Shown here piece after piece: positions 31,592 through 31,678 of a DNA stretch of 41,593 nt; the first letter of the stretch is position 1, and each line of letters starts with the position of its first letter. Both the position numbers and the translations under genes were made by a program. Below the pieces are notes generated by a model that was not told the DNA's origin, did no database searches, and saw only the letters and a list, made by a program, of their open reading frames with translations. Source of the stretch: Vulcanimicrobiota bacterium (GTDB lineage Bacteria > Vulcanimicrobiota > SpSt-956 > JAKJGF01); NCBI GenBank assembly GCA_036746235.1, contig DAIOEN010000040.1, positions 1-41,593 of the forward strand, in the 5' to 3' direction.

Positions 31592-31678
31592 CAGTAAACA
31601 GTGACCAGTGACCAGTGACCAGTGACCAGTGACCAGTGACCGGTGAATAGTATAACCCATTACGCATTACACATCACG
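31592..31678. repeat. Tandem heptamer array (CAGTGAC)x7 (+ degenerate flanks) followed by degenerate CATTACG/CATCACG units
   Basis: cagtaaa cagtgac x6 cggtgaa; produces the spurious minus-strand ORF 31359..31667 (…VTGHWSLVTGHWSL…). Confidence 0.9.

Follow-up and report, generated by a model that had tools for sequence, protein, structure and literature searches.

A short spacer between lepA and hemW, in the DNA of an uncultured bacterium, holds a run of seven-nucleotide units that begins 3 nt past the lepA stop codon, and similar runs stand at the ends of many other genes nearby. The question raised by this locus is whether such arrays follow rules of sequence, orientation and position, and what might read them if they do. 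The stretch analysed, referred to here as the window, is a chromosomal fragment of 41,593 nucleotides with 36% GC, and its genes are of ordinary kinds: two-component systems, a Ser/Thr kinase, a helicase-nuclease, an AbiE pair, a vault-protein-like gene, lepA, hemW, glgC and the gene for PFOR. Pfam scans of 20 proteins of the window returned domains of the two-component, kinase, helicase-nuclease, AbiE and Lon-like types, none of which points to a repeat-binding protein. The window gave no match at the Rfam gathering threshold, and neither tRNA nor tmRNA genes were found in it.

In the focal spacer, TRF describes the array at 31599-31646 as having period 7 and 6.9 copies of CAGTGAC, with a 97% match. 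When the degenerate flanks are counted, it comprises 8 GTRA-phased units over 31594-31646, and its position places it in the trailer of lepA. It is followed by an opposed array at 31655-31677, which ends 13 nt 5' of the ATG of hemW (31690), a gene without a Shine-Dalgarno sequence (SD).

Number, location and unit plan of the arrays

When a single detection rule was applied to every repeat period, 27 period-7 tandem arrays were found in the window, against a mean of 2.9 and a maximum of 5 in 20 Markov simulations. Under the same rule, periods 4, 5 and 8-12 showed no comparable excess in the window, and its period-3 and period-6 arrays lie mostly within coding DNA. An earlier note on this DNA had reported tandem 7-bp arrays at many intergenic sites and held that their distribution would depart from what base composition predicts. 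The arrays are real, as both TRF and the simulations indicate, and the expected departure was found when the comparison was run. Every site listed in that note is present, within a few tens of bases of the position given there, with the qualification that the one at 19119-19195 is a degenerate trace. The intergenic placement also stands for the most part: 25 of the 27 arrays are non-coding, although only 11% of the window is (89% is coding), while those at 3201-3219, 17745-17775, 32822-32846 and 40288 overlap last codons or a stop. In five loci, with about 15 kb of non-coding DNA in total, 318 periodic cores were counted in spacers of at least 20 nt and 35 in 94.8 kb of coding DNA.

LepA has at most 66% identity to any match in 185,579 species genomes, and metagenomic relatives of HemW were found at 89, 87, 83, 83, 65, 58 and 54% identity, on contigs that are syntenic with the 19-41 kb part of the window and carry the NCBI names 'Candidatus Eremiobacterota' and 'bacterium ADurb.Bin363'. 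Array density in these relatives, the clade in what follows, is 5.6-17 per 10 kb, versus 0.86 and 1.14 in two control sets, each of about 80 unrelated loci. The first control set consisted of the loci from a LepA-based scan of the genome collection; a metagenome scan by HemW alignment had at least two clade loci among the matches listed, and the other 78 loci formed the second set. The suggestion that repeats of this kind are restricted to few lineages, in the manner of STRR sequences, is borne out by these densities. The 54% relative (L090) has 4.3 arrays per 10 kb, made of other units with an AGCT core.

As to the units themselves, a division into three families (A, B and C) had been proposed, together with a core common to them. 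The division is not borne out: the three families are one superfamily, in which a GTGA or GTAA core is followed by three free bases (N3) and which occurs in both orientations. Family A, CGTNACG, is the palindrome ACGCGT plus one base and is self-complementary, and family C (CTCAC and its extensions) is that GTGA core read in reverse complement. The common core, in turn, was recovered when the census was repeated without using it to detect arrays. GTGA/TCAC was then the top circular 4-mer, present in 70 of the 104 consensus units of clade arrays (5% expected), and the more inclusive GTRA/TYAC was found in 82 of the 104 (13% expected), against 11 of 144 in the control loci. In the window, GTGA-N3-GTGA-N3-GTGA matches 19 times, and not once in 100 shuffles. 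The three bases after GTGA/GTAA, read in the G orientation, include CGC, TGC, CCA, TCA, GTA, GTG, ATA, AAA, AGA and AGG, among others; 359 phased units hold 46 different N3 triplets, and position 5 is nearly uniform. The core of the arrays is constrained. Many units contain GTNAC (GTGAC/GTCAC), which is palindromic save for its central base, and all four occurrences of CGCGAGG in the window lie at the end of family-A arrays.

The arrays of the window are given below. Units are called G-type when the + strand reads GTGA or GTAA, and C-type when it reads the complementary TCAC or TTAC; GTGA-type and UCAC-type refer to the sense of the gene named.

1009..1061, no strand assigned: GTAATGC GTGACCC GTGACGC, then TCACCAC x3.6, a G-type run passing directly into a C-type run, in the spacer from which the TPR/FGE gene (- strand) and the response-regulator gene diverge
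3201..3219, + strand: CGTGACC CGTGACG CGTAA, forming the last five codons and the TAA of the histidine kinase gene 1870..3219
5807..5836, - strand: CGTTACG x4.3 (100% match) with flanking CGCGAGG, in the leader of gene 3792..5783 (- strand)
6463..6492, + strand: CGTGACG x4.3 with flanking CGCGAGG, UCAC-type for gene 6039..6443 (- strand) and 7 nt 5' of its SD
6574..6662, no strand assigned: CAGTGAA CAGTTAC x2.5, TTACGTT TCACGTG and ACGCATC x3, upstream of the HD-domain gene
8139..8168, - strand: CGTCACG-type x4.3, stopping 5 nt short of ATG 8174, the start of the helicase-nuclease gene, which lacks an SD
12435..12453, no strand assigned: GTAACGC GTTACG, about 2.7 units, a short family-A trace in a convergent spacer
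17666..17717, + strand: GTGACGT/GTAACGG and CGTGATG, the distal UCAC-type arm for gene 17766..19118 (- strand)
17745..17775, - strand: TCACCCT/TCACGAC on the + strand, GTGA-type, holding the TGA of the sigma-54 activator gene (- strand)
20936..21052, + strand: family-A units at 20936-20953 and 21002-21024 and a copy facing the other way at 21040-21052, within what is predicted as the 5' UTR of the CHASE4 histidine kinase gene (- strand)
21868..21892, + strand: GTGATGT GTAACGC GTAACGC GTGACAT, trailer of gene 21174..21821
21945..21962, - strand: TTATTCACCTTTCAC, adjoining ATG 21963 (without SD); its position is kept in relatives, with other units
23355..23387, - strand: TTCACTC-type x4-5, GTGA-type trailer of gene 23396..24013 (- strand)
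29277..29305, + strand: TGACCAG x4.1, UCAC-type in the sense of the vault-protein-like gene (- strand) and ending just 5' of its SD
31592..31646, + strand: the focal array, about 8 G-type units (GTAAACA, GTGACCA x6, GTGACCG)
31655..31677, - strand: CATTACG CATTACA CATCACG, three C-type units as read on the + strand
32822..32892, + strand: GTGAGTA, GTGACGG, GTAACGC and others, the hemW trailer, beginning within the hemW stop codon
32925..32993, - strand: C-type on the + strand and GTGA-type in the sense of glgC (- strand), whose trailer it is; its units enclose a small GC hairpin at 32940-32959
40288..40327, + strand: TCAGTAA/CCAGTGA, about 5 G-type units overlapping the PFOR stop codon, 5' arm of a long hairpin
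40335..40389, - strand: GGTCACT/GGTCACC, 7-8 units, C-type on the + strand, 3' arm of the same hairpin, ending 5 nt before ATG 40395 (sugar dehydratase gene, without SD)

Orientation and position at gene ends

The arrays are oriented: read 5' to 3' outward from a gene end, they are of the GTGA type. Of the periodic cores read on the + strand, those in the left halves of spacers comprise 118 G-type and 39 C-type, versus 33 G-type and 128 C-type in the right halves, counts that are not fully independent, since the spacers of L083-L087 are orthologous. When two arrays lie less than 150 nt apart, their order is G then C in 18 pairs, G then G in 4 and C then G in none, and the window alone gives 5 pairs of the first order and none of the reverse. 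The rule holds independently of the direction of the adjacent gene. As a consequence of this outward polarity, GUGA units occur in mRNA trailers and UCAC units in leaders. It has to be taken into account that the rule is symmetric under reverse complementation, so that a reader acting on DNA would fit it equally well. One clear exception is the array at 5807-5836, whose unit is ACGCGT plus one base, so that a single base sets its orientation. Orientation had not been mentioned in the earlier note.

Downstream of genes, at least three GTRA cores occur within 45 nt past the stop codon in seven genes, and TYAC cores do so in one. The stop codons of four genes lie within or overlap an array: histidine kinase (3219), sigma-54 activator (17766), hemW (32829) and PFOR (40292). 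Past the ends of the genes with trailer arrays, stops in all three frames are reached within 19-42 nt; a run of the trailer units by itself provides one in each frame over 21 nt. Upstream of genes, UCAC-type arrays reach the ATG of five genes that have no SD, namely hemW, those starting at 21963, 8174 and 40395, and the TPR/FGE gene; three other genes have an array immediately 5' of a good SD. The core of the leader units is free of both stop and start codons. The UCAC arrays at SD-less ATGs are kept in relatives despite being made of different units. The claim that the arrays abut start and stop codons thus agrees with four stops lying in arrays and five SD-less ATGs being adjoined by them.

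The same note had ascribed false ORFs to the repeats, and this proved right: arrays are traversed by the ORF from the GTG at 40317, which crosses the array at 40335..40389, and by those from 6634 and 21043, the former translating the mixed units of 6574..6662. No frame of a UCAC-type run is closed by a stop, and ORFs therefore extend through such runs; antisense ORFs also arise in arrays, for example at 31359..31667. The effect is visible in databases, where HemW entries of 410 and 424 aa compare with a true length of 379 aa, an excess of 31-45 residues.

With respect to transcription signals, consensus scans for promoters and terminators gave counts that were not clearly above shuffle expectation. 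Among the matches, a promoter-like one of 11/12 at 21095-21067 (- strand) would make 20936-21052, with its arrays, part of a predicted 5' UTR. No promoter-like site scoring at least 10/12 was found by the consensus scan in the lepA-hemW spacer or in the spacer between PFOR and the dehydratase gene. A model in which the arrays keep leaders unstructured is unsupported, array-bearing leaders not being less structured than the others (mean MFE -7.8 versus -4.9 kcal/mol).

Turnover in the clade and likeness to known repeats

In the relatives L083-L087, orthologous gene ends keep their arrays while the unit family and the copy number change. The lepA trailer, for instance, is (CCAGTGA)7 in the window, (TCAGTGA)4.7 in L085, (GTGAGTG)4(GTGAAGA)4 in L083 and (GTGAGTA)5(GTGAAAA)4 in L084. 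Outright losses also occur, affecting the glgC leader and the lepA trailer of L087. Among closer genomes, the focal (CAGTGAC)7 array is unchanged in an independent assembly of the same population (L001), and five ENA assemblies from a single study (ERZ724080, 81, 84, 87) contain contigs identical to the window. The hemW-glgC arrays showed no difference in three further assemblies of that study, nor did the short arrays of the 65% relative across 7-10 assemblies. A long array pair, by contrast with these short ones, has 20 + 9 units in L092 and 18 + 13 in L097, strains that are 99.67% identical, and the long array of L091, 99.98% identical to L092, has at least 13 units; these differences in length may include short-read assembly error. 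The proposal that the arrays are substrates for slipped-strand variation, and the copy-number comparison between strains suggested along with it, therefore come out divided: changes of unit and copy number between species and the differences of long arrays between near-identical strains speak for it, while the short arrays, the focal one included, were the same in every assembly covering them. Contigs frequently end in or beside arrays. Outside the clade, 15 IMG/VR contigs, ranging from 32 to 74% GC, carry identical arrays of GTGACCA and GTGACGC; in one of these contigs (L188, 74% GC) a C-array, an ORF and a G-array follow in that order.

The closest described parallel is found in the heptamers of Rehm et al. 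2015 (PMC4692102), GGGAATC in Xanthomonas and GGGGAYT in Nostoc PCC 7120, which are biased towards non-coding DNA and have their G-rich strand as the coding one within 50 bp after stops and as the non-coding one within 50 bp before starts. They form convergent pairs and keep the same neighbours between species with variable length and sequence; in Xanthomonas they are transcribed, and no link to gene function was found (PMC4692102). The window arrays resemble them in being tandem 7-nt repeats with non-coding bias, usually of about four units and overlapping stops, as well as in polarity, convergent pairing and conservation of neighbours with turnover (PMC4692102). They differ in several respects from those heptamers (PMC4692102): GTGA-N3 units have no G-tracts and cannot form G-quadruplexes, many variants surround one 4-nt core where the heptamers of Rehm et al. 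have a single unit, no depletion of arrays is seen in divergent spacers, and the lineage, with 36% GC in the window, is neither Xanthomonas nor Nostoc. The unit consensuses contain no GGG run, and the sole G-tract array seen lies in L085, at 7697-7725. The 7-nt excess, non-coding bias, polarity and neighbour conservation of the LSSR/STRR-like heptamer class (Rehm et al. 2015) are all found here. The orientation rule was already described by Rehm et al. 2015 (PMC4692102), so novelty lies not in that rule but in the lineage, the multiplicity of variants on one 4-nt core and units that are unable to form G-quadruplexes.

A second parallel is offered by the TAACTGA repeats of marine Beggiatoaceae, some cyanobacteria and Bacteroidetes (MacGregor 2015, PMC4679880), which occur in 2-6 copies, mostly in one orientation, a few nt 5' of starts without ribosome-binding sites. 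Common to both systems are intergenic heptamers beside SD-poor starts, contigs ending in repeats and strain indels in 7-nt steps (PMC4679880). The leader units TCACTGG and TTACTGA of the clade are one or two bases away from TAACTGA, in the same orientation and position (PMC4679880). The TAACTGA system has, however, a single dominant unit, with related heptamers being rare, whereas the clade has dozens of N3 variants, and trailer arrays and paired arms, present in the clade, are undescribed for it (PMC4679880). No TAACTGA array was found, and the arrays do not belong to that system.

Units of the STRR sequences of Calothrix are said to be CCCCAGT, TTGGTCA and CAACAGT; the reverse complement of the second, TGACCAA, is one base from TGACCAG of the window. 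The arrays are not STRR sequences in the strict sense, their units differing by at least one base from these and the relatives being Candidatus Eremiobacterota. The STRR of Calothrix PCC 7601 are tandem heptanucleotides dispersed in non-coding DNA and restricted to certain lineages (Mazel et al. 1990), and the literature reports heptamer-rich genomes solely in scattered lineages. Heptanucleotides are the most abundant class of long SSRs in LSSR-rich genomes, where units whose length is not a multiple of three are excluded from coding DNA, and polymerase slippage has been proposed as their origin (Mrazek et al. 2007). LSSR is a statistical class, with neither sequence nor orientation in its definition, and it predicts no conserved core.

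Other classes fit less well. A CRISPR array has repeats of 23-50 bp with unique spacers, and the units here are 7 bp long and contiguous. REP/BIME elements are intergenic, dispersed, often paired and inverted, and form stem-loops at mRNA ends, the REPs being imperfect palindromes of 20-40 nt. The window arrays, unlike these palindromes, are head-to-tail 7-mers, and complementarity of their arms is not general; the small GC hairpin found between arms resembles a REP more than the arrays do. They are not REP/BIME elements or MITEs, as there is no stable stem-loop at every copy (z from -9.1 to -0.3). Nor are they phase-variable contingency SSRs, the short arrays being invariant among assemblies and the neighbours housekeeping genes.

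Candidate readers of the arrays and what they would mean

The reading preferred here, somewhat short of an even chance and held tentatively, is that the arrays are constrained elements of untranslated regions, acting at the RNA level, whose core is read in a 7-nt register. They form a clade-wide population of heptanucleotide microsatellites that probably arise and are resized by replication slippage, and their survival would be limited to the outside or the very ends of reading frames because 7 is not a multiple of 3. Transcribed within untranslated regions, they could be bound by an abundant single-strand nucleic-acid binder that reads the 4-nt core once every 7 nt. One OB-fold domain of the cold-shock/S1 type spans about 7 nt; HutP, for its part, recognises UAG triplets that recur every 7 nt. 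Leader arrays may participate in Shine-Dalgarno-independent initiation, and trailer arrays may shut translation and transcription at gene ends. Stops in all frames are rejected as the universal cause of polarity, since GGGAATC and GGGGAYT share the polarity without containing stop codons (PMC4692102).

The same slippage could also leave the arrays as neutral by-products, tolerated in non-coding DNA and oriented by passive purging, given that GTG/TGA units would be harmful just before starts and harmless or even convenient past stops. This is less probable, and on the whole rather unlikely, despite the fast turnover of units and copies between relatives with some arrays lost outright, neighbouring genes without a common function, arms of one spacer that are not matched in sequence, and the standing of heptamers as the commonest long SSR class in many genomes, ascribed to polymerase slippage. 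Neutral decay should strike all seven positions alike, but four contiguous bases are fixed while the other three take 46 values; C-type units past a stop should be harmless, but trailers are G-type in 7 of 8 cases. Arrays also stay at gene ends through complete replacement of the unit family, and unrelated phyla show the same polarity with unrelated units. As for the possibility that the arrays are structural modules, in which G and C arms fold into stem-loops serving as bidirectional terminators lacking U-tracts or as REP/BIME-like stabilisers of mRNA ends, it is decidedly unlikely as a general account. Three spacers do fold strongly: 40286-40400 (dG -56 kcal/mol, z -9.1), 17655-17775 on the - strand (z -4.6) and 14505-14590 of L083 (z -5.6). 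In addition, a small GC hairpin, GGGGCGAAC-N5-6-GTTCGCCC, occurs between array arms and, by a count from the sequences, is enclosed by about half of the G-to-C pairs, and family A is self-complementary. Bidirectional terminators have the order A-tract, hairpin, U-tract, which the order purine arm, hairpin, pyrimidine arm mirrors. Against this, the focal spacer folds no better than its shuffles (z -0.3), the same being true of the spacers at 1000-1070 and 32825-32960, and the pairing of a G arm is no stronger with the C arm of its own spacer than with those of the others (median rank 0.47, n=18); in the focal case, every other C arm pairs at least equally well. Many arrays are single-armed, and hairpins leave unexplained why the G-type arm is always 5'. 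A hairpin or terminator is therefore rejected as the general rule; in the spacers whose arms happen to match, a long hairpin would form as well.

A reader of double-stranded DNA, such as a nucleoid-associated or regulatory protein that binds GTGA(C) once per 7 bp and marks or insulates gene boundaries, would suit an orientation rule that ignores the direction of the adjacent gene, the near-palindromic GTNAC of many units and the constant company of CGCGAGG (4/4 in the window) with family-A arrays. It is nevertheless improbable, considering that sites recurring every 7 bp do not keep phase with the DNA helix, that no candidate protein was seen in the window, that the arrays enter stop codons and reach ATGs instead of promoters, and that the comparable repeats of Xanthomonas are transcribed (PMC4692102). 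Very improbable indeed is a role as contingency loci, in which copy number would switch the neighbours by phase variation, as tetranucleotide repeats do in Haemophilus and Neisseria. Long arrays do vary between near-identical strains, and arrays do lie in leaders near SD and ATG, but the neighbours (lepA, hemW, glgC, PFOR) are housekeeping and not surface or virulence genes, most arrays have 3-5 units and are invariant in 5-10 assemblies, half of them lie downstream of genes, and the heptamers of Rehm et al. (PMC4692102) gave a likewise negative result. Returning to constrained RNA-level elements, a 4-nt core that stays fixed beside a 3-nt spacer that varies freely suggests a reader with a 7-nt register.

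In practical terms, the arrays break short-read assemblies, many contigs of the clade ending inside them, and they mislead gene callers, which extend starts through UCAC-type runs and report spurious antisense ORFs. Masking them is advised when MAGs resembling those of Eremiobacterota are annotated.

The lineage provides an independent case of the polarity rule of Xanthomonas and Nostoc (PMC4692102), and polarity with units that cannot form G-quadruplexes argues against the quadruplex as the common cause. A wider proposal, unlikely as it stands, is that heptad arrays are a general, orientation-specific mark of gene boundaries in bacteria, with a conserved single-strand binder or the ribosome itself reading the short core, in a 7-nt register, on RNA that enters or leaves a gene. 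Under it, the same polarity is expected in unrelated phyla with unrelated units, as is the case for GTGA-N3, GGGAATC and GGGGAYT, and the identical arrays in IMG/VR contigs of widely differing GC would be in keeping with it. As regards the ribosome, GUGAUC is complementary to the GAUCAC of the 3' tail of the E. coli 16S rRNA, and the tail of this host may differ. The 4-nt core and the 7-nt register constitute a concrete bait for binding experiments and, if the boundary-mark reading were true, a clade with a fixed 4-nt core would expose what the reader recognises.

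Flanks and hairpins of the arrays

In the window, CGCGAGG occurs four times, against 0.7 expected, and in 4/4 cases it flanks a family-A array (CGTNACG units) on the outer side. In the mRNA sense this flank reads CCUCGCG and borders the leader array on its 5' side.

5833-5839, CGCGAGG
6489-6495, CGCGAGG
8136-8142, minus strand, CGCGAGG
20950-20956, CGCGAGG

A small GC-rich hairpin, (TA)GGGGCGAAC-N5-6-GTTCGCCC, is found repeatedly in different spacers, mostly between the G-type arm (GTGA/GTAA core) and the C-type arm, its reverse-complement orientation. Its sequence is kept even in L090, the locus of a relative whose HemW is 54% identical. 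This hairpin lacks a U-tract; it may be a terminator of an unusual sort, or else an element resembling REPs. A second repeated hairpin, GGGCGTTT-N3-4-AAACGCCC, is likewise located between array arms.

Locations of the two hairpins in the window and in loci compared with it
GC-rich hairpin: window 32940-32959; L083 8060-8079; L085 9940-9959; L087 9876-9894; L089 3883-3902; L090 11417-11436
Second hairpin: window 17718-17737; L083 9358-9376

Other heptamer families and strain differences

Period-7 arrays are also present in L090 (4.3 per 10 kb), where the GTGA core is absent from all of them and the units (TCAGCTA, AATAGCT, TTGGCTG) are centred on AGCT. A minor family with the unit GCTGATA, also of this kind, was seen in the window and in three further loci.

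Window 34324-34345, GCTGATA family
L083 10825-10851, GCTGATA family
L087 12541-12557, GCTGATA family
L089 12543-12561, GCTGATA family

Telomere-like inverted arrays, with TGGGTGT/TGGGTTT x4 opposite ACACCCA/AACCCTT, lie at 7697-7779 of L085, a relative's locus, and the copy in locus L086 is identical; this is the sole heptamer array seen in the clade with G-tracts, and it is quadruplex-capable.

In one very long array pair, GTRAAGC is repeated about 20 times, and TCTCACG then comes 9-13 times. The number of units varies among strains that are 99.7-99.98% identical, and several contigs from other samples end inside the pair.

L089 2909-3145, equivalent to L092 915-1139, long pair
L097 898-1136, long pair
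L091 1-91, long pair

Neighbouring genes and long spacers

The gene for the PF11978 protein, which is kept in all relatives examined, adjoins lepA. The cysteine-rich ORF, preceded by a good SD and located within an apparent 621-bp spacer, is probably a real small gene; other long spacers of this kind lie at 12075-12509 and 26402-26785. The AbiEii toxin and the partner ahead of it, for which no Pfam match was obtained, probably constitute a type IV toxin-antitoxin pair.

10582-12074, AbiEii nucleotidyltransferase toxin (PF08843) and 208-aa partner
17166-17393, minus strand, 75-aa cysteine-rich ORF
26786-29251, minus strand, 821-aa protein with major-vault-protein shoulder domain (PF11978)

Arrays outside the clade

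Arrays of identical units (GTGACCA, GTGACGC and TCACGCA/TTACGCA) were found in 15 virus-classified IMG/VR contigs (L184-L198), with GC contents of 32-74%. Further heptamers, GGAATTC or GAATTAG for example, often occur alongside them. In L188 (74% GC), C-type arrays are followed by an ORF and then by a 14-unit G-type array. Since these contigs share the same units, the GTGA-N3 heptads extend beyond the clade of the source bacterium and its relatives.
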